Assembly (NCBI GenBank): GCA_046292385.1
Contig: JBKBRF010000012.1
Coordinates: 32,001 to 96,000 of the forward strand
Length of the DNA stretch: 64,000 nucleotides
Source: Armatimonadota bacterium
GTDB lineage: Bacteria > Armatimonadota > SYMT01
Direction of reading: 5' to 3'
The position numbers and the translations under genes were made by a program. Positions 32,103 to 57,291 of the stretch are shown here, one piece after another; positions within the stretch are counted from its first letter, which is position 1, and each line of letters starts with the position of its first letter. The notes under the pieces are model-generated. The model did not search any database. It was not told the DNA's origin and saw only the letters and a program-made list of their open reading frames with translations.

Positions 32103-32356
32103 TGCGACCCGTCCTCGCGTCGGCGGATTATGCCACGTGGCATAACTCCACCCTCTGCTGACCAGATCGGCCGGAAGTGCTGCGCGCCGCGGTAGCGGCG
32201 GACCGTGGTCTCGATCGCGCTCACCAGCCACTCCGCATCCTCTTCGCTCAGCCCCTCGACCCCGGCCATGTCCGGGCAGTCGCGCAGCGGCCGCATCCGG
32301 ATCCGCAGCTCGAGCCACCGCCGGCGGAAGAGATCCGCACCAGATTGTTCCGGCAT
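32099..32356 (-). CDS. hypothetical phage protein; contains palindrome copy 1
   Basis: GGAGG RBS; stop overlaps the next start (ATGA). Confidence 0.6.
   Translation of the reverse strand: MPEQSGADLFRRRWLELRIRMRPLRDCPDMAGVEGLSEEDAEWLVSAIETTVRRYRGAQHFRPIWSAEGGVMPRGIIRRREDGSQ
32128..32145. promoter_or_regulatory. 18-bp palindrome TTATGCCACGTGGCATAA, copy 1
   Basis: Exact copy, about 25 bp upstream of the truncated integrase start. Confidence 0.85.
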
Positions 32357-32359
32357 GGC

Positions 32360-33187
32360 TCACCTCCGCGCCCCGTAGACGGTGCTGCCGAGCCACTGCC
32401 CGGCAGCCACCTGCGCCTGTTCCGCGGCCGCCGCGAGGTCGACCTCGACTCGCTGCAGGCCCGAGCACTGGAAGGGACGATGGCGGAGGTCGAACTCCTC
32501 CACGGTGAGCGCCATCAGATCCCGGGCGAGTTGATGGGCGACCTGCTCGGCGTTCCGGCGGGTGACCGGAAAGTGGTAGAGGGGCTGGACGCTGCCGCGG
32601 CTGGCGACGTAGACCAGCGGATCCTGGCCGGCCTGGTCGCACATCACGTGTCGGTGATGGTAGGCGCTCCACCGCGGCGCCGCGCTCAGATAGACCGGAG
32701 CGTAATGGGCGACGGAGCGGACCCGCTTGTCGACAAACTCCACCTCGCACCCAGAGAGCTCGGCTAGGTCCCGCACGTGGCCCCGATAGGCGCGGACCAC
32801 CCAGGAAGGCAGGAACCAGGCGCCGACGAATTCCGCCGCGCGCGCCTCGTCGATCATCCGCCACCGCTCCGCCAGGCGGAGCAGCTTCGGGTCGCCGTCC
32901 GCTTCCTGGCGGAGGAGCTCTCCGATCCCGAGGCTCAGGAACAGGTGCCCCAGCTCGTGCAGGAGTGCGACACTCCAGCGCTCACCGTGCAGCCGCTCCG
33001 GCAGCGTGATTACCGCCGGCTTGTCCTTCCGGTGCACGATCCGGGGGCACTCGATCGGCTCGTGCCGAATCAGCACCGCCTGCCCCAACCACTCCACCAG
33101 CCGATCCAGGTCGTGATCCGTCGGCACGCCAGGGATCTGTAACGCCAGCCGAACTGCCTCCGCCCTTTCCTCCACCCAGTGAATCAT
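32360..33187 (-). CDS. ImmA/IrrE-family metallopeptidase (anti-repressor)
   Basis: LLHELGHL (HExxH) with downstream E.RAAEFVGAWFLP; located between repressor and integrase. Confidence 0.8.
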   Translation of the reverse strand: MIHWVEERAEAVRLALQIPGVPTDHDLDRLVEWLGQAVLIRHEPIECPRIVHRKDKPAVITLPERLHGERWSVALLHELGHLFLSLGIGELLRQEADGDPKLLRLAERWRMIDEARAAEFVGAWFLPSWVVRAYRGHVRDLAELSGCEVEFVDKRVRSVAHYAPVYLSAAPRWSAYHHRHVMCDQAGQDPLVYVASRGSVQPLYHFPVTRRNAEQVAHQLARDLMALTVEEFDLRHRPFQCSGLQRVEVDLAAAAEQAQVAAGQWLGSTVYGARR

Positions 33188-33329
33188 CCGTATGTTCCCT
33201 CTCCATCGTATTCAAACTACTGTTTGCGTATACCATGGGCCGGCGAGGCCGTCCGTAGACGACGGGTGTACGAATGTGCCAATCGGGCTGAACGGTCGCG
33301 GAGCGACTGCGGAGAGGGTGGGGTGCAGT

Positions 33330-34217
33330 CTAGCGGACGGTGTAGGCGAAGTGCGAGAAGACGCCGTTCCCGCCCCCGAAACCGCCCCCACCACCAGCGG
33401 TGCGAAACGTGAGCCGATTCGGAGGGAGTAGAGTCAGGCTCTCGATGTGGCTGATGTCTTTGCCATCCGACGTTTTGCTGCCGGGCGGAAGCACGTGGAA
33501 GACCCGCGAGCCATTCCAGCCGTACACCGCATCGGCAGTGTGCCAGTAGGCATAACCGTTGTCCGCCAGGACCACTCCAGCGATGGAGTTGATGGTGTCG
33601 CCGAGGATCGGGATGGGCTCGCCGGTGCGGACTACCAGCTTGGTAGTCCGATCATTCGCAACGAACAGTGAGGTGCAGTCGGCCGTGCCGTTGAGGTCGA
33701 GATCGACCCGCGTCACGAAGGCCAGGTCACCGCGGCGGTTTCCCACCATCACGGAGGAAGCCCCGTTGTAGTACTGACCGCCGCCAGGCGCCGGAGTAAG
33801 CGCGCGAGCGAATTCGGAGAGGGTGCCGCCCATGCCGGGTCCAGGAGCGAGGCCGGACTCACCCTCGGGGCCTCTCGGCCCGGTGGGACCCTGCGGGCCT
33901 GCGGGGCCACGCTCGCCGACGGGACCTGCCGGACCGGTGGTGCCGGCTGGTCCTACGGGACCCTCGGGGCCGGCGGGACCGCGGAGTTCGGTGCGGATGC
34001 TGGACGCGAGATCGTCTGCGTGGATGCTGCCGTCCTGCACGTGCTGGGAGGTGACCCCGTTCGCGGCGAGGCTGATCTTGGCCTTCGGTCCGGAGCCGCC
34101 GCCCGAGAGACCGGCGCCGGCGATCACCTGCATCAGCGGTTTCCGACCTGGGCCGGCCACCGCAACCCCGCTGGCGACAAACAGCCCCGCCAGGAACCCC
34201 ACCGCTACCTTCCGCAT
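33330..34217 (-). CDS. secreted protein with a collagen-like Gly-X-Y tract
   Basis: Signal peptide MRKVAVGFLAGLFVASGVAVA; about 14 consecutive G-X-Y triplets (GPAGPEGPV...GPEGESG); beta-rich C-terminus. Confidence 0.75.
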   Translation of the reverse strand: MRKVAVGFLAGLFVASGVAVAGPGRKPLMQVIAGAGLSGGGSGPKAKISLAANGVTSQHVQDGSIHADDLASSIRTELRGPAGPEGPVGPAGTTGPAGPVGERGPAGPQGPTGPRGPEGESGLAPGPGMGGTLSEFARALTPAPGGGQYYNGASSVMVGNRRGDLAFVTRVDLDLNGTADCTSLFVANDRTTKLVVRTGEPIPILGDTINSIAGVVLADNGYAYWHTADAVYGWNGSRVFHVLPPGSKTSDGKDISHIESLTLLPPNRLTFRTAGGGGGFGGGNGVFSHFAYTVR

Positions 34218-34234
34218 GGCCGCGTCCTCCCTTG

Positions 34235-40707: not shown

Positions 40708-41758
40708 CAAGACCGGCATCGAATGGACCGATGCCACGTGGAACCCGATCCGCGGCTGTACGCGGGTCTCCGAGGGCTGCCGGAACTGCTACGCGGAGCG
40801 GGTTGCCGGCCGCTTCAGCGGCCCCGGGCAGCCGTATGAAGGCCTCGCTCGGATGACCGCCTCCGGCCCGCGCTGGACCGGGGCGGTGTGCCTGGTGCCG
40901 GAGCACTTGGAGGATCCGATCCGTTGGCGAAAGCCGCGCCGGATCTTCGTCAACTCGATGAGCGACCTCTTCCACGAGGGGCTCGGCGACGCGGAGATCG
41001 CCCGGGTTTTCGAGGTGATCTGCCGCAGCCTGAAGGGCCGGCAGCCGCACGAGCGCCACACCTACCAGATCCTCACGAAGCGCGCCGAGAGGATGGAGCA
41101 GTGGTTCGAGTGGGCGGAGCGGAAGTATCCGGGCTGGTTCGGCTCTGACGGGCTGCTCGACCTCGGGGACGTGCAACTCGGGGTCTCGGTGGAGAGCCAG
41201 CAGACGGCAGAGGAGCGGATCCCACACCTGCTGCGGGTGCCGGTGCGGGTGCGATTCCTCTCCTGCGAACCTCTGCTCGGGCCGGTGGACCTCACTCTCG
41301 TGGACCATCTCTTCGGCTGGATCAACGCCCTCACCGGACAGACCTTTGACGGGGACAACGGCAACCCAGTCGGCTCGATTAGCGCCCGCGGTGTCGATTG
41401 GGTGATTGTCGGCGGCGAGAGTGGCCCCGGCGCGCGGCCGATGCATCCGGACTGGGCACGTACCCTGCGGGACCAGTGCCAGGCCGCCGGCGTGGCCTTC
41501 CATTTCAAGCAGTGGGGCGAGTGGAAGCCGATTTCGGAGATGCCCGAAGACGAGTACGACCCGCTCTATGAGCCGGCCCCGGCCCGCGATCCCGAAGCTA
41601 CGCGTCGGTGCCGCGTTGCCACTCGCGCGATCCAGTGGGACGGCGGCGATGGATACCAGTTGATCCAGGGGCACTGCGGCTACCTGACATTCCGCGTCGG
41701 CAAGAAGCGCGCGGGCCGCACCCTGGATGGGCGCACCTGGGATGAGTTCCCCGCGTGA
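40700..41758 (+). CDS. DUF5131 / phage Gp37-Gp68 family protein
   Basis: TGIEWTDATWNP..GCT.VS.GC.NCYA, IFVNSMSDLFH, QILTKR, FLSCEPLLG, WVIVGGESG and FKQWG. Confidence 0.93.
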   Translation: MADKTGIEWTDATWNPIRGCTRVSEGCRNCYAERVAGRFSGPGQPYEGLARMTASGPRWTGAVCLVPEHLEDPIRWRKPRRIFVNSMSDLFHEGLGDAEIARVFEVICRSLKGRQPHERHTYQILTKRAERMEQWFEWAERKYPGWFGSDGLLDLGDVQLGVSVESQQTAEERIPHLLRVPVRVRFLSCEPLLGPVDLTLVDHLFGWINALTGQTFDGDNGNPVGSISARGVDWVIVGGESGPGARPMHPDWARTLRDQCQAAGVAFHFKQWGEWKPISEMPEDEYDPLYEPAPARDPEATRRCRVATRAIQWDGGDGYQLIQGHCGYLTFRVGKKRAGRTLDGRTWDEFPA

Positions 41759-43563
41759 GCTGGACCTGGTGCGTGGCCTGCACGCGGCCGTGCCCGGGGC
41801 GGGATCCGGATGGCTTCTGCTCTGACGTCGACCGCGCGGAGCTGGCCCGGCGGTCCAACTGGCTCCGGACCGGCCGGTACGAGGACCCGCAGCCGGAGCC
41901 ACCGCCACCCCCGCCCCGCTTTGTCCACCGGCACCTGCCGGAGTACGAGCGGATCGAGGTGCGGCTTGACGGCGAGGTGATGGAGCACGTGTGGTCGGCG
42001 ATCGCGGGCCCGGCCGATCCGGACTGGCGGAACTCCGGCCAGTGCAGCACCGTGCCGCCGGATGGGCGGCAGCGCTACTACCGGGGACACGTGGAGATTC
42101 GCTGGCGGGAGGAGCTAGCGAGAGACGAGGAGACGAGCGAGATGACGATGACGGTAGACCCGCCGGCCAGACTTGCCGGCGTTACGGTGAGAGCTCGGGT
42201 GGCCTGGACCGACCCCGACGGAACCGAGGCATGCGGCACCGTGGTGTCGGTGGATGATGGCGGCCTGGTGGTCAACAAGGATCGCATCGGCCAGACCCGC
42301 CTGCGGTGGAACACGGAGGGGCTGCGGCTGCTGGACGGCTCCGCCGAGACGGAGGCGCCGGCGGAAGGCGGAGTTATGCCACGTGGCATAATCACCGGCC
42401 CGACGCTGCTGCAGATCCAGGTAGGCCAGATCGAGCTCAATCCCCGCAACCCCCGCCAGGTGAGTGAGGCGGATGATGCCGCGGTGGCAGAGCTGGCGGA
42501 GGACATCAAGGCGCGGGGGCTGATCAATCCGATCACTGTCCGCGAGACGGGCGACGAGCACCGGCCTTACGAGGTGATCACGGGCGAGCGGCGCTATCGG
42601 GCCTGCCTGAAAGCGGGCTTGACGCAGGTGCTCTGCATCAATCGGGGCGCCATCCCCGCGGAGCAGGCGTTCGAGGAGACGCTCCGGGAAAACGCGCTGC
42701 GGCAGGACCTCAACCCGCTGGAAGAGGCGCGGGCGGTGGAGCAGGCTCTCGCCGAATTCCACTGGTCGCAGGAGAAGATCGGCACGCTCCTGGGCGGGAA
42801 GTCGCAGAGCTGGATCTCCCGGACGCGGGCCCTGCTGCGGCTGCCGGGAGAGGCGCAGGAGCTGATCAAGGGCGGCAAGCTCCTCCGGAGCATGGGCGAG
42901 GAGCTGCTCACGCTCGCGCAGTGGCCGAAGGACTTAGTCCGCGTCGCGCAGGTCGCCGCGGATGAGGAGTGGACCGCCGCGAAGCTCTCCGCGGAGGTCC
43001 GGGAGCGGCGCCGCCAGCTCGAGGCTCGCGACCAGCCGAAGCTGTTCGGCGGGGACGAGATCGCTCCCGCGGCCACCGCGCCGGCGCCGGTCGCGCCGGC
43101 TGGACCTACCAGCCTGCTCGCGGCCGCGGAGCGGGAGCTGGACGAAGTCGCCGGGCGGATTACGGAGATGGTCTACGCGGATGAGCCGGCCGCTCCCACC
43201 GCTCAGGGTGATAGCACCGGCGCAATCACTACGGCATCCCAACCGACCGCTCCCAGCGCCTCCGAAGCGCTCACCAGCAGCCCCGCGGAGCCGGAGCCGG
43301 AGACCACGCCCGAGACGAAGCCCAACGCGCTGAAGAGCGCTGAGGAGCTCGTCGCGGAGAAGCACGGGGCTGCGGTCCCCACCACCGTCGGCGCGGCCAC
43401 GCTCGATGCCCCCGTCGCGATGTGCATGGTGACGCAGGACTGCGTGACCTGGCTCCGCGGCGACGGCTTCAACGCCAAGGACTTCCTCTTCCGCCTCAAG
43501 TCGGCGGCCTACACCCGCGGCCTCTCCGCCGCGGAGATCCTCACCCAACTGGAGACAGCCTGA
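41755..43563 (+). CDS. ParB/Spo0J-family protein (PRTRC-associated); true start may be later (42142 or 42376)
   Basis: NPRNPR, LAEDIKARGLINPITVR, VITGERRYRA (CTP-binding GxxRxxA), ENALRQDLNPLEEA and HTH SQEKIGTLLGGKSQSWIS. Confidence 0.9.
   Translation: MSWTWCVACTRPCPGRDPDGFCSDVDRAELARRSNWLRTGRYEDPQPEPPPPPPRFVHRHLPEYERIEVRLDGEVMEHVWSAIAGPADPDWRNSGQCSTVPPDGRQRYYRGHVEIRWREELARDEETSEMTMTVDPPARLAGVTVRARVAWTDPDGTEACGTVVSVDDGGLVVNKDRIGQTRLRWNTEGLRLLDGSAETEAPAEGGVMPRGIITGPTLLQIQVGQIELNPRNPRQVSEADDAAVAELAEDIKARGLINPITVRETGDEHRPYEVITGERRYRACLKAGLTQVLCINRGAIPAEQAFEETLRENALRQDLNPLEEARAVEQALAEFHWSQEKIGTLLGGKSQSWISRTRALLRLPGEAQELIKGGKLLRSMGEELLTLAQWPKDLVRVAQVAADEEWTAAKLSAEVRERRRQLEARDQPKLFGGDEIAPAATAPAPVAPAGPTSLLAAAERELDEVAGRITEMVYADEPAAPTAQGDSTGAITTASQPTAPSASEALTSSPAEPEPETTPETKPNALKSAEELVAEKHGAAVPTTVGAATLDAPVAMCMVTQDCVTWLRGDGFNAKDFLFRLKSAAYTRGLSAAEILTQLETA
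42374..42391. promoter_or_regulatory. 18-bp palindrome, copy 2
   Basis: Exact copy inside the ParB ORF, immediately before the ParB domain. Confidence 0.85.
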
Positions 43564-43748
43564 TGCGAGTGTTCATGTACAACGGCGCACAGCTCGAAGA
43601 TCCGGACCCGTCGATGAGCCCGGACGACGTGCGCAAGCAGTATGCGGCGGTCTACCCCGCGCTTACCAACGCCGGCATCGTGGGACCGAAGCAGAGCGGA
43701 GACGTGGCGACCTATGAGTTCAAGGTCAGTGTCGGCACCAAGGGGTAG
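43563..43748 (+). CDS. PRTRC system protein C (prokaryotic ubiquitin-like protein)
   Basis: MRVFMYNG..LEDPDPSMSPDDVR..YA..YP.LTNA.I.GP......YEF...VGTKG; TGATG coupling to parB. Confidence 0.9.
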   Translation: MRVFMYNGAQLEDPDPSMSPDDVRKQYAAVYPALTNAGIVGPKQSGDVATYEFKVSVGTKG

Positions 43749-43754
43749 CGAGCC

Positions 43755-45152
43755 ATGCGCGAGTTCTTTCAAGGAAGCGATCGCGCGGGCCCGCAGCGGC
43801 GCCCCCGCCGCCGGCGGGACGGAGCTCGCGTTGGAAGTCGCCGCGGACGAGGGGGCGCTGAAGGTCGGGAGCTCTCTTCAGCAGCTCTGCTCTTCCAAGG
43901 CTGGGGCGAGGGTGGTGATCACACCACCTTCCTCCGCCCTCCCACCACCTCTGTAATCCTGCCGGGGCTGAGAGCGGACGTGCCGCTGGAGGTGGAAGTC
44001 TCCGGCTCAGAGCAGCAGCTTGCCATCTTCGCGGAGGTCCTCTTGGAAGAGGGGATCCTCCGCGAAGAGGACTGGCTCGGCACGCTGTGCGGCTCGATTC
44101 AGCACGGCCTGGTGCGGTGGGTGAACGTGGAACTGGGCTGCGAGCGGCTTCAGCACTTCGACGTGTCGCTAGCCTACACCGACGACATCGATGAGGCGCA
44201 GATGGACGATCCAGGCTGCTTCAACTTCACGGACTGGGGCTGGGTCGACAAGTTCGGTCAGAAGGATGAGACGACCGGCTGCTTCATCCTGACCTGCGCC
44301 ACCGGGCATTACTTCGACGTCGGCACCTGGGGCGCGGAAGTGTTCGTCGGGACCCAGATCTTGGCGCTCGAGCGGCTTTGCCCCGGTGCCGGCTGGAGCG
44401 TGTTCGCCCTGGTCCAGGAAGCGGTGGACCAGCAGTTCTTCGGCGCCACTCCCGTCTGGGGGGATCGCTTCTTGGAGTTCTGCGGCTACACCTTCGGCGA
44501 GGACGCCTCCACGGAGGCGGACGAGGACGGCGGAGACGATCCGGATGAGGGGCAACTGCGGAAGCGCGTGCGGATCGGGGCTGCCGGCGAAGGTTATGCC
44601 GCAGACCTGGAGGACGATCATTTGGCGGAGCTCACCCGTACTCGCTTCCGCCGGGCCTTCCCGGAGCAGTGCTTCAGCGCCACGTGGGATCCCAAGGTCG
44701 TGAAGAAGGCGCTTCGGCGCTGTCGCGGCGCCGGGGATGCATGCCTGCGGGAGACGCTGCAGACCGCGCTCGAGCTGGCGCAGCTCGGAGCGGAGCTCGA
44801 TCCCAAGCGGCCGCTTAACGAGTGGGGCTACTTCGCCCGGGATGGTGTGGAAGTGGTCAACTCGGTGACGGTGCGCTGGTCCGAGGACGACGAGCTGCCC
44901 CGACTGATCGACGACTACTTCGAGCACGCTCAGAACTGCTGCGGGCTCACCACCGAGATCTTCGTGCGCGGTTTCCAACTCGCCGCTCCGGAGACGATCC
45001 GAACCTGCGTGCGCGGTCTCGGCCAGGCGCTGCGGATCCTGGCGAAGACCGACCACCTACTCGAGCTGCTCCATCAGCCGACGCGCCTGGTCGGGATCCT
45101 GGCGGATCGTAAGGGCGAGTCTTGTCCCGAGGAGAGAAGCGAATGCGTGTAG
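43755..45152 (+). CDS. PRTRC system protein F-like
   Basis: Lies between proteins C and B; basic leader, then LP.L..DVP; G..I..LE...PG.G..V segment; acidic tract. Confidence 0.55.
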   Translation: MREFFQGSDRAGPQRRPRRRRDGARVGSRRGRGGAEGRELSSAALLFQGWGEGGDHTTFLRPPTTSVILPGLRADVPLEVEVSGSEQQLAIFAEVLLEEGILREEDWLGTLCGSIQHGLVRWVNVELGCERLQHFDVSLAYTDDIDEAQMDDPGCFNFTDWGWVDKFGQKDETTGCFILTCATGHYFDVGTWGAEVFVGTQILALERLCPGAGWSVFALVQEAVDQQFFGATPVWGDRFLEFCGYTFGEDASTEADEDGGDDPDEGQLRKRVRIGAAGEGYAADLEDDHLAELTRTRFRRAFPEQCFSATWDPKVVKKALRRCRGAGDACLRETLQTALELAQLGAELDPKRPLNEWGYFARDGVEVVNSVTVRWSEDDELPRLIDDYFEHAQNCCGLTTEIFVRGFQLAAPETIRTCVRGLGQALRILAKTDHLLELLHQPTRLVGILADRKGESCPEERSECV

Positions 45153-45868
45153 AGGATATGACCACCGGCAGCCGTCCCTACTACCTGCGCCGCGCCGTGC
45201 TGTTGTACGAAGCGGAGAACGGCTCCGCCTTCGCCAGCGTGAACCCGGTCCGCCGCCGGAACAAGAAAGCGACGATCGGCGCCGGGCGTTGCCTCTCCCG
45301 GGATGCCTTGGCGGAGCTGAACCGGGAGCTTGCCGGCCTCCCGAGCCGGCGGGAGCTCCTGCCGCCGCACGTGCTGTTCGCCGACGGCTCGCGAACACTC
45401 TGGTACCGGCCGGCGCACCGGGCGCCGATCTTCTTCAACACCGGCAGCAAGAAGCTCGACTCCTTTTTCCGGGGCAAGCAGGTTCTCTATCCCCCGCTGC
45501 TGTTTCTGGCGATGCCCCAGAACCTGTATGCCTGGGGGCTCGGCTCCGATGACCGCCCGTCCGGGGAGACGCACCTCTACCGCGCGCCCTGCCTGAACCT
45601 CTACGGGGACGGGCACATGTGCGCGGGCACCTCGAAGTTGCCGCTGGAGGTCTCTACCGACGTGCGGCTCTTCGAGAAGGCGTTCTTCGACACTGCCTTC
45701 TCCCACAGCAACCTCGGCGGCCAGGAGCTCTGCCGTTACGCGGGTGGGCATGACGCGCTCTGGAAGGCGCTGGCGGACCCGGAAGTAACCCCCGACTGGC
45801 CGGCCTGGCTGGCGCCGCTCCGGGGCAAGAGCGGGCCGCTTACCGCGGCGGAGGTGCTCAACCGATGA
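45143..45868 (+). CDS. PRTRC system protein B (prokaryotic E2 family D)
   Basis: LP..VL......WY.PA..A..FF; P.LLF; RP...T.LY.AP..N.Y.DG.MC.G; E..FF...FSH.N. Confidence 0.88.
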   Translation: MRVEDMTTGSRPYYLRRAVLLYEAENGSAFASVNPVRRRNKKATIGAGRCLSRDALAELNRELAGLPSRRELLPPHVLFADGSRTLWYRPAHRAPIFFNTGSKKLDSFFRGKQVLYPPLLFLAMPQNLYAWGLGSDDRPSGETHLYRAPCLNLYGDGHMCAGTSKLPLEVSTDVRLFEKAFFDTAFSHSNLGGQELCRYAGGHDALWKALADPEVTPDWPAWLAPLRGKSGPLTAAEVLNR

Positions 45869-46707
45869 GCGAGCACCGGATAGCCGCACGCCTCCTGGAG
45901 ACGGAGGTCACGATTCACCTGGCCGGCTGCGGCGGTAACGGCGCGCAGATGCTCTACCGTCTGGCCCGGATGGACCGCGCCATCCGCTCGCTGGGGCACC
46001 CGGCCGGGATCTACGTTCGGGCATTTGATCCGGACCTGGTGAGCGCGGCGAACCTCGGGCGCCAGCTCTTCACTCCGGATGACATCGGACGGAATAAGGC
46101 GGACGTGCTGGTACAACGCGTCAACCTGTTCCACGGGCTCTCCTGGGATGCGGAGCCGGAAGCCTACGGTGGCCAGGGCGAGACGTACGAGTCCGATTAC
46201 TTTGGTGCACGCACGTCGATGCGCCGGGCGTGCGACATCCTCATCACCTGCGTCGACTCCGCGAAGGCGCGGCGGGAGATCCATCACGGCATCACGCAGC
46301 ACCGGCGCGGGGCACAGCACACTCCGCTCTACTGGCTGGATCTGGGCAACACCCAATCCACCGGGCAGGTGGTTCTGGGTGAGCCGATCGACGCCGTCAA
46401 CGCCCAGGGCAGCCGACGCCCGCGGCTACCGACGGTGGTGGAAGTCTTCCCAGAGCTGCTGGATGAGACGATCCCGGAGGACAACCGCCCGAGTTGCTCG
46501 CTCGCGGAGGCGCTCGAGTCGCAGGACCTCTTCATTAATGACCTGATCGTCGGATGGGCCGGGCAGCTCCTCTGGGATCTCTTCCGCAAGGGCAAGATCA
46601 CCAAGCACGGAGCGTTCATCAACGCCGGTGACTATCTGGTAAGTCCGCTTCCCGTGCCGGCGCCGAATCCGGAGAAGCCGGCGCGGAAGACGAGGGCACG
46701 GCAATGA
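45865..46707 (+). CDS. PRTRC system ThiF-family (E1-like) protein
   Basis: GCGGNG, FDPD.VS.ANLGRQLF..DIG.NKA.VL..R.N, CVDS..AR, WLDLGN....GQV.LG and SCSLAEALE.QDLFIN. Confidence 0.92.
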   Translation: MSEHRIAARLLETEVTIHLAGCGGNGAQMLYRLARMDRAIRSLGHPAGIYVRAFDPDLVSAANLGRQLFTPDDIGRNKADVLVQRVNLFHGLSWDAEPEAYGGQGETYESDYFGARTSMRRACDILITCVDSAKARREIHHGITQHRRGAQHTPLYWLDLGNTQSTGQVVLGEPIDAVNAQGSRRPRLPTVVEVFPELLDETIPEDNRPSCSLAEALESQDLFINDLIVGWAGQLLWDLFRKGKITKHGAFINAGDYLVSPLPVPAPNPEKPARKTRARQ

Positions 46708-50030: not shown

Positions 50031-50038
50031 GCGGCAGC

Positions 50039-50068
50039 GGCAGGTTATGCCACGTGGCATAACCTGCC
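50039..50068. promoter_or_regulatory. palindrome copy 3, extended to a 30-bp perfect palindrome
   Basis: GGCAGG-TTATGCCACGTGGCATAA-CCTGCC, intergenic. Confidence 0.85.
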
Positions 50069-50440: not shown

Positions 50441-50824
50441 ATGGCTGCCAACCAACCACCTCTGCCTCCGGGAGCCACCCGGATCTTTGCTGTCCGGGAG
50501 CACAACGGACAACCCCGGAACCGCTACGTCGGCTACCGCGTGCCGGGGGATTCGCGCGTCTGGATGTGGTCGCACCAGGACAAGGACCACCATCCGTGCG
50601 AGCGCGCGGACCTGGTCGGCGAAGACCTGATCGAGCCCGATACGTTGCTCGGCGCTGCGATGGACGCCGACGACGCCCAGTCGCGGCGCGAATTCCTCAA
50701 GTGGCTGCGGGCCAACACGCCGAGCCTCTTCACCATTTTCTTGAGTGGCCGCATGGGCCCGGACCAGTCGGAGTCTGCCGATGAGCGCAGAGACCGCGGC
50801 CCGGGCTCACCGCCCGCGGCCTGA
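50441..50824 (+). CDS. hypothetical phage protein
   Basis: ORF downstream of the promoter; plausible codon usage. Confidence 0.5.
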   Translation: MAANQPPLPPGATRIFAVREHNGQPRNRYVGYRVPGDSRVWMWSHQDKDHHPCERADLVGEDLIEPDTLLGAAMDADDAQSRREFLKWLRANTPSLFTIFLSGRMGPDQSESADERRDRGPGSPPAA

Positions 50825-51389
50825 GAGCGATCAGCAGCCGGCGCGCTCGCGGAAGGAGTTCCTGGCCGCGCCCGGCCGGAACCACAATCCGCATACCGGG
50901 ATGCCGTTGCGCCCCGGCCAGCGTCTCCCCACCGAGGGCGAGGAGCAGGAGTCGTTTGACGACTGGCTCTACCACCGCCGCTCTGCCCCCTTCCCGGATG
51001 ATGGCCGGTGGGAGATCACCGAGAGGCATGCCTACCGTTGGCTCTCCCACCGCTTTGAGGGGCTCCTCGACAATCCCCGTCGCGCTGCGGGGCTGACCCG
51101 CCAGGGCGTCGACGCCAATGACCTCCTCCTCCTGATTCTGGACCTCCACGCCTACGCCGCGCTGCGCGAGCGAGCCTGGCAGGCGGGCCTGCCGACGCCG
51201 TGCCTCGTGGAATACCTCCGCGCGGACCGGGAGCGGTGGGGCTGGTGGGAGAAGGTGTTCCGGCTGGTGCGCGCGATGAACCGGGACGAGGATCCGGCGG
51301 TGATCGACGCGCTGCGTGAGGATCTTCGCGCGGCCGGCGGAAACCCGGATGCGGATGACGAGGGAGAGGGCAATGAAGGGGGGCTATGA
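50781..51389 (+). CDS. hypothetical phage protein
   Basis: GGAG RBS; overlaps the next gene. Confidence 0.55.
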   Translation: MSAETAARAHRPRPESDQQPARSRKEFLAAPGRNHNPHTGMPLRPGQRLPTEGEEQESFDDWLYHRRSAPFPDDGRWEITERHAYRWLSHRFEGLLDNPRRAAGLTRQGVDANDLLLLILDLHAYAALRERAWQAGLPTPCLVEYLRADRERWGWWEKVFRLVRAMNRDEDPAVIDALREDLRAAGGNPDADDEGEGNEGGL

Positions 51390-51990
51390 CCCCTCGGCGG
51401 CGGCCGCGGCGGCCACCAAGATCAAGTGGTTGAAGCGGGAGGACTGGGACGGGCTGGTAGACGCGGCGGCGGAAGAGCGGCGGGAGGAGCTGCTCGGGAT
51501 CCGGGACCAGGCGATCATCGCCCTCGGGCTCTCCTCCGGGCTTCGCGTCTCGGAGCTGTGCAACCTCAACGTCGAAGACCTCGACCTGAAGGACCGGCGG
51601 CTGACTGTCCGGCGTGGGAAGGGCGGCAAGCCGCGGCCGGGGCGCTTCTCCGAAGACGCGCGCGACCTGATCGAGATCTGGTTGCAGGTGCGGCCGACGC
51701 AGCCGGAAGACACCGCCCGGGAACAGCGCGGACCGCTCTGGATCTCCCGCAAGGGTGGGCGGCTGGCGGCTCGGACGGTCCGGGAGATGATGCAGAAGGC
51801 CGGCGAGAAGGCGGCCCTCGGCCACGTCCACCCGCACATGCTCCGCCACTCCTGCGCGACGGAGCTCCTCCGGAAGACCAACAACCTCCGCCAGGTGCAG
51901 GTGCACTTGGGGCACGCCCGGATCACCACCACCGAGATCTACGCGCACGTGATCAACAACGACCTAGAGAAGGCGGTAGAGGACCTGTAG
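51373..51990 (+). CDS. small tyrosine recombinase (catalytic domain only, FimB/XerC-like)
   Basis: RD....L...GLRVSEL, GKGGK, HPHMLRHSCAT and LGHARITTTEIYAH; 205 aa. Confidence 0.9.
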   Translation: MKGGYDPSAAAAAATKIKWLKREDWDGLVDAAAEERREELLGIRDQAIIALGLSSGLRVSELCNLNVEDLDLKDRRLTVRRGKGGKPRPGRFSEDARDLIEIWLQVRPTQPEDTAREQRGPLWISRKGGRLAARTVREMMQKAGEKAALGHVHPHMLRHSCATELLRKTNNLRQVQVHLGHARITTTEIYAHVINNDLEKAVEDL

Positions 51991-52002
51991 AGAGGGAGAC
52001 CC

Positions 52003-52248
52003 ATGAACTACGAGATCAATTTGGAGGTAACTGTCACCGCGGATGAGATCCGAGGAATGGTCGCGGAGAAGGTCAACAACTCCCGGATGCATCGCCTACC
52101 GTTTACGGTCAAGCCGGAGGACGTGGACGTTCAGCCGGACGGCACAGCCCTCATCCGGTGCCAGCGGCAGGCGGCTGATAACAGGACTTGGTGGGCCGAG
52201 AACAACCAGCTCACCGAGGAAGAGAAGCAGAAGCGAGGGACGCAGTGA
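52003..52248 (+). CDS. hypothetical phage protein
   Basis: GGGAG RBS. Confidence 0.55.
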   Translation: MNYEINLEVTVTADEIRGMVAEKVNNSRMHRLPFTVKPEDVDVQPDGTALIRCQRQAADNRTWWAENNQLTEEEKQKRGTQ

Positions 52249-52619
52249 GCACGATCCATCGACAGCACCGCAAACAGCGCACCTTCTTCCGGCTTCTGGC
52301 GCGCGAGCAGCGCCGGTGCTTCCAGTCGCTACACGACCGCGGAGAACTGAAGGTGCCCGACGAGCCCGCCCGACCGGATGAGCAGGACGACTGGGCCGAC
52401 GAGGAGGATGACGATCCAGGGCAGCAGGGCTGCCTGCGCTGCGGCGCCCCGAGCTGGTACGTCCGCACAGGCTACTGCTCAGACGAGTGCCTTGGAGCGG
52501 ATGCCGCCGAGATCGAAGATGAGGGGCGCTGCGGTCACTGCGGCCGGCCCGGACCCTACGGAGAGCCTTGCTTCCGACCGCTGGACGGGCAGCTCGAAGA
52601 GTGCGGGCAGTTCATCTGA
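52245..52619 (+). CDS. Cys-rich hypothetical protein
   Basis: CLRCG...YCSDEC, CGHCG; GTGA overlap. Confidence 0.5.
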   Translation: MSTIHRQHRKQRTFFRLLAREQRRCFQSLHDRGELKVPDEPARPDEQDDWADEEDDDPGQQGCLRCGAPSWYVRTGYCSDECLGADAAEIEDEGRCGHCGRPGPYGEPCFRPLDGQLEECGQFI

Positions 52620-52627
52620 ATTCCGTA

Positions 52628-52665
52628 GCTGAACCGCCGAATTCCAATGAATTCGGCGGTTCAGC
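52628..52665. terminator. 17-bp perfect hairpin between convergent genes
   Basis: GCTGAACCGCCGAATTC-caat-GAATTCGGCGGTTCAGC. Confidence 0.65.
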
Positions 52666-52740
52666 GGTCACGGTTCGCAGGTTCGGCGCCAGGGAGGCTA
52701 TTCCGCAAGTTCAATGTGGGGGGGTTAACGCGAGTGCTCC

Positions 52741-54201
52741 TTACTTCACGATTGTCTGGGAGCTGTTCGGCACGTATCCCCAAACGTCGCGCCGTCCATC
52801 TGGAAGTTCTACGGTGAATCGTAACATCCCGCCCTCCCATTTAAGAACACCAACCTGAGGGGCGACCACTCGAAGACTCTGCGCCTTGTTCCGCGTCAAA
52901 CGTGAGAACAAGGCGCGGAAATCATTGATGGCAACCTGATTCATCAATCGTCGGTTCACTTCCGGAGAAAGGCGGGAGATCTCTAGACGCGCCCAGGTTG
53001 ACCCAGCCACTCGCGCTGCATCCTCCAGAACCATGGCATGAGTTCTAGCATAGCGCGCTGTCATCAATCCCACGTTACGCTCTTCGACTCGGCATATTAG
53101 GTCAAGCGACGGTGGAACGCAGGCTTGCATCTTTCGGTAGAGATCGACCGGGTCTTTGGCGGGACCAGGCCGTTCACGACCAAGAACCCAGTCACCGCTC
53201 CGATCCGGTCGTAGTGTCCAACCGTAGAGCGCACCGATCCCGAGCGCCAGATCATCGGCTCTCATGCTCGGAGCCGGAGAAAGGTATACCCGTCGCTTCG
53301 ACGCATAGTCGGGAGTGCGAACGTCCCGCCCGACCCGGTTCTTCAACACTGCCGCAATCGCATCCACTCGGATCTCTCCCTGGGGGAGTTTCAACTCCGT
53401 GTGAAAAGCCTTCGGCGCCTGCGGAAGATCAGCTAATGCCTCACCTCGGAATGAGACTGGTCTGACGTCCCACGGTGGAGGTGGAGGGGCTTGGAAGTTC
53501 GACTTGGCGTTATCCCGCGGATACGCGATCCAGTAGACCATGGGCTCTCGAAGGGTGGGGTCGACTTCGAGTTCCGCGCCTTTCCAACCAACGAAGAGCT
53601 TCTCCATCCGCTCGCTATAGGTCTCCTGGCTGGAGAAGACCTGCGCGGCATTTACGGTAAGCCAAAGCCGACGTTGCTCATCCGGGAGGGCAGCGAGTGG
53701 TAGCCCCTCGGGTCGCCGCATCGCGGCACGCTGCTCCACTGTCAGGGAGTCCCAGAACCGATTCTGGTTCTCGGGGTAGAGCGGCGACAGGGGATATGGC
53801 GCGAACGGGTGAACCAATCGATGCAGATCTGCTCCTGTCTGTTGTAACTCCTCCAGCTCTAAACTGAGCGTCTCGCGTTCATCCCCATAACGACGATGAA
53901 ACAGGAGAACACGACTACCCTGACGTCCGTAAAGGTCGAAATCGGTGGCCAGTGCGTCGAGTGCGCGCGAGACGGGTACGTCCTCAAGCGCCATTTCCAA
54001 GCGGTGTTCGACCTGCGGGATCTCCGCGATGACACTAAGACCTGTAGCCTGTGCTACGGTGTCCAACACCTCGGCGAGCTTCGCTCCGCGGGAGAGCGTC
54101 ACCTTCGGTTCCATCGAGGCCTTGGGACCGTCTTGGGCGGCGGATGCGGCTACCCCGAGGGTGGCTACGAGCGCAAGAATTAACCTAATCTGCATGTTCA
54201 C
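52741..54201 (-). CDS. secreted hypothetical protein (moron) with an STN-like N-terminal domain
   Basis: Signal peptide; KVTL...KL.EVL..VA..TG.SVIAE...LDALA..FD; visibly lower GC than the phage core. Confidence 0.65.
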   Translation of the reverse strand: MNMQIRLILALVATLGVAASAAQDGPKASMEPKVTLSRGAKLAEVLDTVAQATGLSVIAEIPQVEHRLEMALEDVPVSRALDALATDFDLYGRQGSRVLLFHRRYGDERETLSLELEELQQTGADLHRLVHPFAPYPLSPLYPENQNRFWDSLTVEQRAAMRRPEGLPLAALPDEQRRLWLTVNAAQVFSSQETYSERMEKLFVGWKGAELEVDPTLREPMVYWIAYPRDNAKSNFQAPPPPPWDVRPVSFRGEALADLPQAPKAFHTELKLPQGEIRVDAIAAVLKNRVGRDVRTPDYASKRRVYLSPAPSMRADDLALGIGALYGWTLRPDRSGDWVLGRERPGPAKDPVDLYRKMQACVPPSLDLICRVEERNVGLMTARYARTHAMVLEDAARVAGSTWARLEISRLSPEVNRRLMNQVAINDFRALFSRLTRNKAQSLRVVAPQVGVLKWEGGMLRFTVELPDGRRDVWGYVPNSSQTIVK

Positions 54202-54257
54202 CCCTGATGACGCGAGCGACGGTCTCCCGTCGCTCGCCGGAGCAGGTAACTTCGGGA

Positions 54258-54902
54258 CTAGTTGCCGATCTGGATCTGTGCCCAGGCCACGGCTGATCCA
54301 TGGAATCCCGTACCCATGGAATCAGCAACGGTGAACACCATGATCGACCCCTTCACCTCCATCGTCATGTTGATAGAAGCAGACTTCTGATCGCTGCGGA
54401 AGTTGGTGTTTGCCGGGCCGGGATCATAGGCCGTCCATGTAGGGAATTGTCCTGTTACCGAGTTGTTGGCGACGGCGCTCACGTTCACGGCTACAGTGCC
54501 CGCTGAAGCCGTTGCCTCCGCCTCACCTCTCGAGAATGAGTTTCCGTTCGCAGCGGTAGATCCGGCGGTTGCCTCCGCTCGGCAATCTCCCTTTAACAGC
54601 ACCGAAAGGGCGGCAGGATTCCCATTCTTGGTGTAAACTCTCTTATAGCTAAACTCCTGGTGAGCGTGCGTAAAGCTGTTCTGGCCGTTACTGCTAGCTG
54701 AGTTCGCACTAGCTTGGGCGTAATAGCTATTACTAGCATCGCTTTTACCGCTACCCTCCGTTGAGTGAGAGATGTGGTCCACATCGGAGTCTAACTCGAG
54801 GTTTCCCACGGTCCAGCTATCTGCGAGTGCGGGAGATGCAGCCATGATCCCGACGCAGATGCAGCCGACCGGGACTGTCCGAGTGCGCCAGTTCCTTCTC
54901 AT
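54258..54902 (-). CDS. secreted Ser/Ala/Asn-rich hypothetical protein (moron)
   Basis: AAGGAG RBS; signal peptide ending SPALA; lower GC. Confidence 0.6.
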   Translation of the reverse strand: MRRNWRTRTVPVGCICVGIMAASPALADSWTVGNLELDSDVDHISHSTEGSGKSDASNSYYAQASANSASSNGQNSFTHAHQEFSYKRVYTKNGNPAALSVLLKGDCRAEATAGSTAANGNSFSRGEAEATASAGTVAVNVSAVANNSVTGQFPTWTAYDPGPANTNFRSDQKSASINMTMEVKGSIMVFTVADSMGTGFHGSAVAWAQIQIGN

Positions 54903-55288
54903 ACGGATTCTCCTTAGCGAGCAGTGTCGGCCGAGCGAGCGACGGAACGCCCACAGGCCAGGTAATTGAGGCGAGATAGAATCGAGGGGATCAGGACAGG
55001 ATAGCTAGGCCCCACGACCCTACCGGATCTAGTTTCTTCCTAAAACGTAAGGACCCTTTGCTTGAGTAGTAGCGGTATTGTTGAGAAAATCGCAAGAAGG
55101 TGTGAGAGCCGCATGAAAGCGGCGGTTGGCGCTCACCCCCCGTGGTAGTGTGAGATTAGAAGAGTGAGATCCGATCTCACCACAATGCGTGAGAGCTGAA
55201 TACACCACGAAGGGGCCGGCGACGGCCCCGCAAAGAAGAGAGGGGGCTCCCGAAAGGGGGTCCCCTCTCGCACTTTCTGGGGGCCGCC

Positions 55289-55540
55289 ATGGACAGAGCC
55301 GAGGAGCCGAGGAAGCCGCTGTCCTGGTGGGACATCTCGATCTCCGGACGGAGGGTTCCGGCTCAGGAGGACGTCACAGTCAATGCCGTCGTTCGCCGCA
55401 GCCGCTTCCGCTTCGGGGCGCGCCTGCCCTGGAAATGGGCGCTCGTTATCGGGCTCCTGATCTTGGGCTCCCATCCGTGGGGCCGATGGGTGCTCGAGCA
55501 GGCGCAGTGGTTGGCCCGACAGATGGGGGTGGCGATCTAA
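55289..55540 (+). CDS. small membrane protein (holin candidate)
   Basis: One TM helix; first gene of the lysis/late operon. Confidence 0.4.
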   Translation: MDRAEEPRKPLSWWDISISGRRVPAQEDVTVNAVVRRSRFRFGARLPWKWALVIGLLILGSHPWGRWVLEQAQWLARQMGVAI

Positions 55541-55803
55541 TGGGAGTTTTCGGCGTCTTCAAAGGCAAGCTCTGGGACCTCGTCAAGGGAAACGTCTGGG
55601 AGATCCTACGCTCGGTGGTCTCCAAGGCCGCGGCCGAAGAGGTCGCAGACGGCATCCAGGCACACTTCCAGCGCATCGGTCCGGAAGGCCGCGAGCGACT
55701 GGCTGCGAAGCTGGTCAAGATCGCGGACCTGCTCCGGGCCGACAAGAGCGGCAAAGCGGCGGCGCAGGCCTCCGCGACACTGGTTGGCGAGCTGGAGCTA
55801 TGA
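55540..55803 (+). CDS. hypothetical phage protein
   Basis: TAATG coupling. Confidence 0.55.
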   Translation: MGVFGVFKGKLWDLVKGNVWEILRSVVSKAAAEEVADGIQAHFQRIGPEGRERLAAKLVKIADLLRADKSGKAAAQASATLVGELEL

Positions 55804-56084
55804 CCTGCGCGCTTGACGCGCGCGACCAGACACCAGATGAAGTCCGGCTTCGGGGAGCGATCCTCGAGCCGGGCTTTTTCAATGTCGGCCGCGGCGTAAC
55901 CCTCGACCTTACGGAGTGCACCCTCAGCCTCCGCGCGGTGGGCGGCCTGGTCCGCCTGGTCCGGGAAGAGCGGCGCGTCCAGATCCGGATGCCCTACACC
56001 TGCCAGCCGCAGCAAGCGATCGAGACGGTCTTCGGACCGCACCACCTCCACTACCTCGGCGGCACTGACTGGGAGCTCTCCTGA
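55800..56084 (+). CDS. hypothetical protein with a STAS-like segment
   Basis: VTLDLTECTLSLRAVGGLVRL resembles the STAS core; ATGA and TGATG coupling. Confidence 0.4.
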   Translation: MTCALDARDQTPDEVRLRGAILEPGFFNVGRGVTLDLTECTLSLRAVGGLVRLVREERRVQIRMPYTCQPQQAIETVFGPHHLHYLGGTDWELS

Positions 56085-56920
56085 TGTTCAAGCTTCGGGA
56101 CCTAGACCTCGACCGGATCTGCGAGCTCAACGAGTTCCTCGTCCCCCAGGACGGCCTGGCCATGGTCGGTATCCGCGGCTGTTTGCCGGCGAAGCCCGGC
56201 GCCTGGGGCCGTGAGGTGGAGCTGGAGGCCGCGAAGGTCGACTACACCCACCCCCGCTGCACCATCATCCTCTGGCAGCCCCGCTTCGGCTCCCTCGCGG
56301 CCTTCCCGGGCAGCACCGTCCCGCACATCAGCGAGATCAAGAAGGCGGCGGCGAACGGCGGCAGAGGCGCCAATTGCCTGATGACGGGCTGCTACAGCTA
56401 TGTCCGCGGGTGGCACCGCTACGGATCCCGGACCGCGCACCAGGCATTTCGGCAGGATGGAGTCCGGCCGCTGCGGCGGACCAGGGATGACCTCACCTAT
56501 TCCCTGGCCGACCCGGTGGAGATCTCGAACCCGGGCGACAACCTCCACGCCGGGTGGTGTGACAGCGTCGATTCCGAATACTACGGCTCGGCCGGCTGCC
56601 AAGTAGTGGTAGGCCGCCCCACCCGTGGCCACTGGCGGACCTTCTACGCCGAGGCGGTGGCGAAGGGCCAGACCGCTTTCACCTATCTGCTGCTGACCTG
56701 CCGGGACATCAAGTTCCCCCAGCCGGTGGTGCGCTTCGGCAGCCGCGGCCCGCGGACGAAGGCGCTGCAAGAGGCGATGATCCGGGGCGGCCGGCTGAAG
56801 GGACCCGCGGACGGCGTTTGCGGGCCCAACACGTTCTTGTCGCTGGTCCAGGCGCAGGGTGACCGGGACACTGGCGTCTTCGGGGTCGACCTCGCGCGAC
56901 AGATCGGAGCCCGCTGGTGA
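56084..56920 (+). CDS. probable endolysin: YkuD-like catalytic domain plus peptidoglycan-binding domain
   Basis: NLHAGW...SAGCQVV; C-terminal GSRGP..KALQ.A......ADGVCGPNT...L...Q. Confidence 0.7.
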   Translation: MFKLRDLDLDRICELNEFLVPQDGLAMVGIRGCLPAKPGAWGREVELEAAKVDYTHPRCTIILWQPRFGSLAAFPGSTVPHISEIKKAAANGGRGANCLMTGCYSYVRGWHRYGSRTAHQAFRQDGVRPLRRTRDDLTYSLADPVEISNPGDNLHAGWCDSVDSEYYGSAGCQVVVGRPTRGHWRTFYAEAVAKGQTAFTYLLLTCRDIKFPQPVVRFGSRGPRTKALQEAMIRGGRLKGPADGVCGPNTFLSLVQAQGDRDTGVFGVDLARQIGARW

Positions 56921-57267
56921 CCTGGCTGGATCACTTTTGGAAGCGGCTGCAGTGGCGGATCCACCGTCGCCGGCCGGGGGCCAAGCCCCACAAGCCCGTG
57001 CGGCCCCTGGAGACGGCGCTGGCCTGGAAGGAGCTGTGCTGATGCGTCTCGGTTGGATTGGAAACGGCATACTCGCCGCACTGGCGATGATCGGCCTGGC
57101 CGCGCGGACTCCGCAGGGATCGGCGCGGCCCGAGCGCTCGCCGTACATCGCCGCCTCTTCCGGGCGTGAGCTGGTCTTCGGCCGGCGTCTCCCGGACCCG
57201 CCGCGGCAGGGCCGACCGTTCCGCCGCTGTCACCGGACCGGGCTCAAGCTCCGCGCGCTGTAGGGCG

Positions 57268-57291
57268 CGATTATGCCACGTGGCATAATCG
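57268..57291. promoter_or_regulatory. palindrome copy 4 (24-bp perfect palindrome)
   Basis: CGA-TTATGCCACGTGGCATAA-TCG, just upstream of the metallopeptidase/terminase genes. Confidence 0.85.

Follow-up and report, generated by a model that had tools for sequence, protein, structure and literature searches.

KorB of the IncP plasmid RK2 is a ParB-family cytidine triphosphate (CTP) clamp that recognizes 12 dispersed palindromic operators (OB) and affects expression over long range (PMC11790492). BisD, encoded with its bisS sites on ICEclc of Pseudomonas, is an orphan ParB-like CTP clamp that spreads ~50 kb and switches on the genes of the element together with BisC (PMC12409273), and SopB of the plasmid-prophage N15 binds the single inverted repeats IR1-IR4 at several places in the genome (PMC7205306). 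A 2025 survey counted 872 prophage-encoded orphan ParBs among 80,326 ParB homologues (~1%) and reported orphan ParBs to be common on mobile elements; its main text leaves DNA targets untreated, and the term "parS-like" occurs there 0 times (PMC12704722). Here, we describe a ParB encoded by prophage A, an integrated tailed prophage of an Armatimonadota bacterium, together with an 18-bp palindrome, TTATGCCACGTGGCATAA, that is repeated across the prophage. The DNA analyzed, hereafter the window, is a stretch of 64,000 nucleotides (GenBank assembly GCA_046292385.1, contig JBKBRF010000012.1, abbreviated C12, positions 32,001 to 96,000) from a genome of 7.04 Mb in 91 contigs; the sequencing run containing it carries the label hot-springs metagenome. 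On sequence evidence, the palindromes are probably the loading sites of the phage ParB, a CTP clamp without a ParA, and we infer that the protein binds them, depends on CTP, and spreads from them.

Prophage A resembles the KorB-OB system in its clamp family and in having palindromes dispersed over a mobile element of roughly 60 kb. KorB, however, works with KorA as a clamp lock and with the ParA protein IncC; no counterpart of IncC was seen in prophage A, and no KorA-like partner was identified. The phage ParB is also nearer to chromosomal ParB and Noc (E 1e-25) than to KorB (E 3e-8), and RK2 is a plasmid, whereas prophage A is an integrated tailed prophage whose sites mostly mark gene ends, not mapped promoters. 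BisD offers a closer match in lifestyle, being an orphan clamp of an integrated mobile element with parS-like palindromes inside genes, but it uses two sites and needs BisC plus an extra activation domain, whereas prophage A has seven evenly spaced sites and a different C-terminal domain. N15 likewise pairs a phage ParB-type protein with single inverted repeats at several genome positions; N15, however, is a linear plasmid prophage dependent on partition and equipped with SopA, whereas prophage A is integrated in tRNA-Leu with no ParA seen. With the Noc-Noc-binding site (NBS) and ParB-parS systems, the phage pair shares its fold, DNA-binding domain, and 16-bp palindrome core, the combination of Q173, R184, and adenine 1 being Noc-like and the CACGTG center of the prophage A site parS-like (PMC7383237). 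It departs from both in having GC rather than TT at bases 3-4, sites on phage DNA only, and a ParB without the Noc membrane helix or the canonical ParB C-domain. Finally, in the PRTRC systems of plasmids and integrative and conjugative elements (NCBIfam TIGR03734-03742), as here, parB lies directly upstream of genes for Prok_Ub, an F-like protein, an E2 (PRTRC_B), and ThiF; the ParBs of prophage A and of a second prophage, B, are nonetheless of the canonical ParB/Noc type, protein F falls under its cut-off, and the cassette resides in tailed prophages. A full-text literature search found no account of an integrated tailed prophage in which a ParA-less ParB is accompanied by private sites throughout the genome.

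A palindrome confined to phage DNA

An earlier reading of the window from its letters alone (the sequence-only reading) had reported four exact copies of the palindrome, two of them extended to 30 and 24 bp. Both statements held: the copies start at 32128, 42374, 50045, and 57271, and perfect palindromy covers 30 bp at 50039-50068 and 24 bp at 57268-57291 but stops at 18 bp in the rest. No fifth match occurs in the window even at three or fewer mismatches, and 100 dinucleotide shuffles gave 0. Four is the count for the window; the whole of prophage A holds seven, numbered here from the left, with sites 5 to 7 past the right end of the window at C12:97273, 111899, and 118683 (window-equivalent 65273, 79899, and 86683). 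These are the only exact copies in the genome. All seven lie on C12 between the 55-bp attachment (att) repeats at C12:62194 and C12:121952, and the remaining 6.98 Mb contain none.

The flanks of the four window copies have nothing in common outside the 18 bp. The looser pattern TATGCC-N4-GGCATA has 13 matches in the whole genome, 7 in prophage A, 3 on contig C45, which carries prophage B, and 3 on contig C37, which ends in a third phage region, phage C. All 13 are in these three phage regions, with none on the other 88 contigs. The central four nucleotides are uniform within a phage, ACGT in prophage A and GCGC in prophage B. A search with the family pattern gave no match in the six other genomes of the host's family. 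A more degenerate pattern, TTATGCCNNNNGGCATAA, searched across genome contigs, matched at least 120 stretches; among the matches listed, these belonged to unrelated taxa and held a single site in all but one.

Prophage A spans 59.8 kb and is inserted in tRNA-Leu(caa), bounded by the 55-bp direct repeats. Successive sites are 10.2, 7.7, 7.2, 8.0, 14.6, and 6.8 kb apart, and a minimum gap of 6.8 kb is rare among seven random points (P = 0.0003 on a linear map, 0.003 on a circular one). The features on which the argument rests, in window coordinates, are as follows.

30194..30248: attL, one of the two 55-bp direct repeats, overlapping tRNA-Leu(caa) at its 3' end; the other, attR, lies beyond the window at C12:121952-122006 (window-equivalent 89952-90006)
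30370..31578, minus strand: tyrosine integrase of prophage A (Pfam Phage_integrase, 80 bits)
32128..32145: site 1, exact 18-bp palindrome with a minus-strand coding stretch on either side and the integrase start 549 bp away
41755..43563, plus strand: ParB, 602 amino acids, with N-terminal extension, ParB_N, HTH_ParB, linker, and helical C-terminal domain
42374..42391: site 2, exact palindrome inside the ParB open reading frame (ORF), codons 207-212 (VMPRGI), in the linker directly ahead of ParB_N
43560..43748, plus strand: Prok_Ub, 62 amino acids, first gene of the ubiquitin-like cassette after parB (Pfam Prok_Ub, 82.7 bits)
43755..46707, plus strand: PRTRC-type genes, namely protein F-like/alpha-hel2 (43755-45152), Prok-E2_D/PRTRC_B (45122-45868), and ThiF-type E1 (45865-46707)
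50039..50068: site 3, 18-mer at 50045-50062 within a 30-bp perfect palindrome, 14 bp past the stop of a pentapeptide-repeat gene
57268..57291: site 4, 18-mer at 57271-57288 within a 24-bp palindrome, 7 bp past one ORF and 16 bp ahead of a metallopeptidase gene

The codon-position G+C signal shifts at the sites. The sequence-only reading had placed two of the window copies inside ORFs; site 2 is clearly coding, but site 1, which sits at a frame change of codon-position G+C, is only possibly so, in the last ~15 codons of an 85-amino-acid ORF.

The phage ParB and its specificity residues

Residues 1-207 of the prophage A ParB form an N-terminal extension, within which a small beta-barrel-like segment is also present in relatives. 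The ParB_N CTPase domain follows (residues 218-313; PF02195, 61.5 bits, cut-off 26.3), then a helix-turn-helix (HTH) domain, HTH_ParB (residues 317-418; PF17762, 53.8 bits, cut-off 22.6), with the recognition helix GGKSQSWISRT; the protein also matches TIGR00180 (110 bits, cut-off 58.45), and the HTH domain aligns to the DNA-binding domains of 6s6h, 7bnk, and 6sdk. Past it, a disordered linker leads to the helical C-terminal domain. The CTP-binding boxes, read as motifs only, are GERRYRA and ENALRQDL in A and GERRLRA and ENEFREQL in B. The earlier claim that the phage ParB keeps GERRYRA and an HTH is thus correct, and the ENxxR motif is present as well. Among solved structures, the phage ParB is closest to those of chromosomal ParB and Noc (E 1e-25 to 1e-16), with KorB farther away; the Noc model scores slightly above the generic ParB model, yet far under Noc's own cut-off.

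An AlphaFold model of the ParB core, built from a 7-sequence alignment, has a predicted local distance difference test (pLDDT) score above 90 for core residues 10-220, a disordered linker at 225-342, and a three-helix C-terminal domain. In Foldseek searches, the folded part groups with ParB, Noc, and KorB, with probability 1.00 to ParB and Noc chains, and 6y93, the Noc-NBS complex, gives the best superposition of the modeled DNA-binding domain (template modeling score 0.85). The canonical ParB C-domain was not found by Pfam, and the precomputed domain list holds PF17762 and PF02195 only. The C-terminal 71 amino acids are modeled as three helices (pLDDT 56-73), and their homodimer prediction scored 0.66 against 0.02 for the best control. 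As high a mark was obtained for 20 of 30 solved homodimers and for 1 of 23 single chains; contact agreement between runs was at least 94%, and partner pLDDT at least 71. On these models, the novel helical domain is predicted to serve dimerization.

The absence of a visible parA, noted earlier for the window, holds for the phage contigs C12, C45, and C37: PF13614 has 9 matches in the genome and none on these three, and Pfam scans of the called phage genes returned no ParA families. LG[KR]GL, a ParA-binding motif (PMC12704722), was seen neither at the ParB N-terminus nor at the start of the ParB core. Set beside ParABS, prophage A therefore showed neither an adjacent ParA nor a ParA-binding peptide. 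Elsewhere in the genome, C28:8842-10203 encodes another ParB_N protein (122 bits, ~450 amino acids) whose C-terminal region is rich in Cys and whose HTH, GCSASTLRRH, is non-canonical; it adjoins no palindrome of the TTATGCCACGTGGCATAA family and is not near the host parS-like site.

Specificity residues were numbered by aligning the phage HTH in HMMER with 6s6h, the DNA-binding domain of Caulobacter ParB. In ParB, guanine 1 of parS is bonded by R173; in Noc, adenine 1 is read by Q173, provided that residue 179 or 184 is K or R; and in both proteins base 6 is read by residue 201 (PMC7383237). The phage ParBs have Q173, R178, T179, R184, and E204, with S at residue 201 in A and T in B, and the phage half-site reads A1 T2 G3 C4 C5 A6 C7, with G6 in B. 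As aligned, adenine 1 together with Q173 and R184 agrees with the ParB/Noc specificity rule. A single base, base 6, distinguishes the A and B sites, and its counterpart is the one specificity residue that differs, 201; the GC rather than TT at bases 3-4 accompanies the contact changes N178 to R and R204 to E. The ParB/Noc specificity code would thereby extend to a new half-site, ATGCC.

The host ParB, encoded on contig C38, has the canonical GKSRS...N...GHAR residues, and the single parS-like site in the genome, with one mismatch to the consensus, lies ~1.1 kb upstream of host parB. We reject the notion that the phage word is the host parS, as had the sequence-only reading: the genome's only parS-like site adjoins host parB and differs from TTATGCCACGTGGCATAA, and both host protein and host site are of the canonical kind.

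A second ParB-site pair in prophage B

Prophage B occupies ~57.1 kb on C45, with a serine integrase at C45:142-1737 and tRNA-Arg(gcg) at C45:8886-8961. Because the last 121 nucleotides of the contig repeat C45:117-237 and its first 121 overlap the ends of contigs C48 and C54, the assembly seems to hold both integrated and circular (excised) B. Its ParB is 43% identical to the A core over its full length and has the same recognition helix, GGKSQSWISRT. The palindrome is inherited with it: TTATGCCGCGCGGCATAA occurs at C45:18760 and 56723, near-copies occur at 42151 and 30756, and two further copies are degenerate. The four main sites are evenly spaced (P = 0.008). The copy at C45:18760 lies in codons 12-18 of the B parB (DYAARHN), 11 nucleotides ahead of the Pro-Glu-Leu-Leu that starts the core, and the copy in the A parB (VMPRGI) ends 9 nucleotides ahead of the equivalent Pro-Thr-Leu-Leu. 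That the same place in parB is occupied in different frames indicates that the DNA word is conserved and not the peptide. The sequence-only reading had suggested a comparison with related prophages, and B, whose ParB is orthologous and whose palindrome is a variant, is one such case. A protein and its matching site thus come here with a second, natural pair that differs by one base and one specificity residue, allowing a direct test of whether phage ParBs act as KorB/BisD-like clamps.

The two ParBs differ in their N-terminal regions. About 100 amino acids at the N-terminus of the A protein (residues 4-103) correspond in B to a separate 112-amino-acid gene (C45:11180-11518), and the small beta-barrel-like segment, which precedes the ParB core in A and in most of the relatives, sits in the C-terminal linker of the B protein (residues ~300-335). 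Since most relatives carry the N-terminal barrel-like segment (A residues ~150-200), the 602-amino-acid fusion in A looks genuine, with site 2 in the linker. The motif KPxALKSAEE recurs in the ParB linker of several relatives.

Palindromes at other phage ParB loci

An exact-word scan of IMG/VR with TTATGCCACGTGGCATAA returned two records. One, an unrelated 28-kb provirus of 50% G+C (G401), carries the 18-mer once, inside its own 454-amino-acid ParB_N and HTH_ParB gene, where it encodes the same MPRGII as in A; this ParB has Q at position 173. In the other, a 4.4-kb fragment (G402), the 18-mer lies in the intergenic spacer before a capsid-like gene, and the fragment, which has no ParB, is too short to interpret.

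With the 7-sequence alignment, 80 IMG/VR phage loci encoding ParB homologues were gathered. Dispersed 16-bp palindromes, scored as repeats more than 200 bp apart, occur at 14 of the 80 loci; five dinucleotide shuffles gave 0, 1, 1, 0, and 0 of 80. Eleven loci have Q173, and a palindrome starting A1-T2 lies in parB or within ~2.2 kb of it in nine of them, is imperfect in one, and is absent from one. The palindromes at Q173 loci are often NBS-like (TATTTCC..GGAAATA) and often inside parB. The locus with the most similar helix (L165, GKSQPWV) has the site TATTCCACGTGGAATG. These counts suggest that dispersed ParB-palindrome systems are a widespread and under-described phage strategy. At L169, L186, L156, L154, and L190, an NBS-like palindrome falls within the HTH-coding region, at a conserved I-S-x-x-I-T type motif; with the palindrome inside the HTH-coding region, the gene carries its own site, and peptide and palindrome constrain each other.

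A profile search of 1.84 billion representatives identified a clade closer to the phage ParBs than chromosomal ParBs are (P0122-P0129, P0175, P0132, and P0199), drawn from one Armatimonadota metagenome-assembled genome and otherwise from Logan or JGI assemblies. In 10 of 12 ParB_N clade members, A and B included, the peptide just before ParB_N can encode a 16-nucleotide perfect palindrome of the family. Peptide changes across the clade are paired, A going with H or Q and S with N, and Y, F, and H alternating at the outer codons. The half-site ATGCC fits all four GGKSQSW[IV]SRT members, in real DNA for A and B and by back-translation only for P0122 and P0125. Taken as back-translations, the clade palindromes suggest a conserved site. 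Other searches were less productive. Viral contigs searched with the ParB or the A/B pair gave no relative in one search and one at 27% identity in another; metagenome contigs gave one canonical chromosomal parAB locus (L139); and all proteins returned by a homologous-protein search were ParBs of the chromosomal type, 31-45% identical across 35-73% of the query. No other ParB relative at E of 1e-36 or lower was found in the host's order or class (8 genomes including the host), and among 401 sampled genomes of the phylum, only two others matched, both at chromosomal-ParB level.

Two further phage regions in the genome

Phage C, at the end of C37, has Mu-like head genes and ~30 kb assembled. It carries ATATGCCACGTGGCATAA (C37:50194) 15 bp upstream of a small-terminase gene (Terminase_2), and between two tail genes it has TTATGCCGCGCGGCATAA, plus a degenerate copy. 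By BLAST, its proteins have none in common with A and only a two-gene tail segment in common with B. C37 ends in a multi-copy repeat, and phage C is broken off inside its tail genes with the remainder unassembled. For C12, C37, C40, and other contigs, the terminal 20 nucleotides are found again at the ends of further contigs, from 4 to more than 20 of them; such recurrent ends indicate that multi-copy repeats, possibly insertion sequences, broke the assembly.

Phage D is a prophage at C40:17000-35000. Its large terminase subunit (TerL) is 73% identical to that of A, and its other packaging and tail genes are 34-60% identical. It has no ParB, no ubiquitin-like genes, and no palindrome of the family, including at the junctions homologous to sites 4 and 6 of prophage A. 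The sequence-only reading had held that its proposal would fail if related phages lacking ParB kept the sites. Phage D, the ParB-less relative, does not keep them; phage C, unrelated to A, partly bears out that concern.

Proposed mechanism and alternative explanations

From gene order, the phage ParB belongs to an early replication/recombination operon and would be made on induction. Its dimers would load at the seven sites, 7-15 kb apart, close as clamps, and slide, and the sliding clamps would cover the whole 60-kb phage genome. The even spacing over the whole prophage argues for such genome-wide coverage rather than for control of a single promoter. Given binding, a KorB/BisD-like timing or silencing of transcription across the phage genome is a reasonable though tentative candidate for the downstream role. 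Organization or compaction of replicating phage DNA is a somewhat unlikely alternative, a platform for the co-transcribed PRTRC-type ubiquitin-like cassette is unlikely, and only a slim chance attaches to something else. A bolder scheme, in which ParB clamps are the DNA-targeting arm of Prok_Ub/E2/E1/alpha-hel2 tagging on replicating phage DNA, and the A and B ParBs also act in trans on the packaging and tail operons of phage C, in conflict or cooperation between prophages, is improbable. A promoter scan of window 49000-58500 found one consensus promoter-like site (50330-50358, 11 of 12 consensus matches, 268 bp downstream of site 3) against a mean of 1.0 in shuffles, with a consensus that may not suit Armatimonadota.

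The view of the palindromes as cognate sites of the phage ParB, put forward in the sequence-only reading, gains from their exclusivity to phage DNA, the pair in prophage B, the agreement of Q173 with adenine 1, the difference from the host pair, the absence of sites in phage D, and G401. Several observations weigh against it. No ParB_N domain is present on C37 despite its two or three sites; phage C may have its own ParB elsewhere or use the ParB of A or B in trans, or the word may have a ParB-independent role. G401 has the same 18-mer with a different recognition helix, and only a single copy in 28 kb. The change from S201 to T201 is small and may not account for base 6. The IMG/VR palindrome counts were compared with shuffles only, not with a set of ParB-less phages, and in the clade analysis 2.8% of residues start a palindrome-compatible window by background, among sequences that are kin. 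Finally, prophage A is 83.8% coding by our gene list, yet six of seven sites lie outside genes, in the ~16% that is non-coding.

This last point, placement, is where one of the alternatives starts. The palindromes could be RNA or single-stranded DNA hairpins (terminators, attenuators, or processing or mRNA-stabilizing sites) whose association with parB is incidental. Five of the seven sites in A lie 5-36 bp past a stop codon, as RNA or terminator elements would, and two of the seven have convergent genes on their flanks. Much longer hairpins of unusual stability (z -5.3 and -5.6) have sites 3 and 5 at their tips, which likewise weighs against ParB loading sites; site 5, directly past the major capsid gene, has an extra 8-bp G+C stem, and the flank extensions differ in sequence between sites, as if pairing were selected. 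However, all 18 nucleotides, including the four-nucleotide "loop," are the same in 7 of 7 copies, and neither phage shows any variation in its loop. In a genome of 69% G+C, the stems end in A+T-rich sequence; no U tract follows in the flanks, and for 9 of the 11 site contexts that were folded, stability did not exceed that of shuffles (z +0.1 to -2.4). An intrinsic-terminator scan of window 49000-58500 listed neither site 3 nor site 4. Hairpins would also leave unexplained a copy kept inside parB in different frames in two phages, and again in G401, and the homologous structural operons of phage D have no palindromes. We give this explanation a low probability overall, although a secondary hairpin role at sites 3 and 5 may exist.

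A role as operators of another dimeric DNA-binding protein, for example a late-gene activator or repressor, is similarly improbable; it could be a LuxR/GerE-type or other HTH regulator borne by the phages or a phage-targeting host factor. Such a role would accommodate a palindrome family common to three phages whose heads are otherwise unrelated and of which one has no visible ParB, and candidate proteins exist: A has a GerE/LuxR protein besides its ECF-type sigma factors, and the terminase genes of B adjoin one for a GerE/sigma-r4-like protein. Two sites, A site 4 and C37:50194, are just upstream of packaging genes. Against this, no shared regulator is assignable, because by BLAST A and C share no protein and B and C share tail genes only; no copies exist anywhere in the host chromosome; and the sites are 7-16 bp from start or stop codons, too near for classical activator-promoter geometry. 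The copy within parB, the Q173/adenine 1 agreement, and G401 would be left unexplained. Very improbable is a selfish or recombinogenic element, of the kind of repetitive extragenic palindromes (REPs) or miniature inverted-repeat transposable elements or else a module boundary, spreading among co-resident phages: exact copies suggest recent copying, C37 has one A-type and one B-type copy, the copy in the A parB sits at the junction with the N-terminal part (residues 4-103) that is a separate gene in B, and A and B seem to have recently exchanged parts, among them an 87-amino-acid protein (94% identical), but only 18 bp are repeated between dissimilar flanks, Pfam scans of the called genes found no REP-associated tyrosine (RAYT/Y1-type) transposase, and regular spacing with a ParB specificity match would be unexpected.

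The PRTRC-type cassette

The gene order ParB, Prok_Ub, alpha-hel2/protein F-like, E2, and ThiF is the same in prophages A and B, and in both tailed prophages the PRTRC-like cassette lies in the early operon (window 43560-46707 and C45:20058-23022). The PRTRC_ThiF model scores 290.4 (cut-off 144.75) and PRTRC_B 138.9 (cut-off 131.45), both above; PRTRC_F at 43.4 (cut-off 58.4) and PRTRC_parB at 65.3 (cut-off 278.6) are both below, which leaves the locus short of full PRTRC membership. By its family matches and order, the cassette would appear to work like PRTRC with a canonical ParB swapped in, linking a canonical ParB to PRTRC-type ubiquitin-like genes. A tblastn search with Ub, F, E2, and ThiF against the 80 IMG/VR ParB loci gave 0 matches, so the ParB-palindrome pairing is generally independent of ubiquitin-like genes; since the phage ParB also falls outside the PRTRC_parB family, the ubiquitin-like link appears to be an addition specific to the A/B clade.

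PADLOC found no defense-system match for ParB, the cassette, or the ORFs of the low-G+C island described below, with only weak E1-E2 matches for ThiF. Just past ThiF, an 87-amino-acid protein is 94% identical between A and B (window 46704-46967 and C45:23022-23273), and the next conserved protein is 70% identical (window 47557-48255 and C45:23282-23920); neither has a Pfam family. Such identities amid flanking genes at 30-50% suggest a recent exchange of a small segment between A and B.

Other features of prophage A

The left arm of prophage A holds the integrase, an XRE-type HTH gene, and a divergent Xis-like HTH gene. The early operon encodes RecT, a 506-amino-acid ORF, DUF5131, ParB, Prok_Ub, the PRTRC-F-like protein, Prok-E2_D (PRTRC_B), and the PRTRC-type ThiF, after which come several ORFs of no assigned family and the pentapeptide-repeat protein. 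The middle contains a small tyrosine recombinase and a lower-G+C island; between this recombinase and the late genes, window 52000-56000 has a G+C content of 0.60-0.61 against ~0.68. The island includes minus-strand ORFs of 486 and 214 amino acids with no Pfam, PHROG, or PADLOC match. The late genes begin with the metallopeptidase that follows site 4, which precedes a DUF2280 protein, TerL, and portal/MuF, and continue with prohead protease, major capsid, and tail. The right arm (C12:111968-119802, window-equivalent 79968-87802) is cargo-like, with lower codon bias, and encodes LuxR/GerE, two extracytoplasmic function (ECF)-type sigma factors, a 525-amino-acid MauE-AhpC/Redoxin fusion, a pilin-like N-methyl protein, and HTH-ImmA/IrrE.

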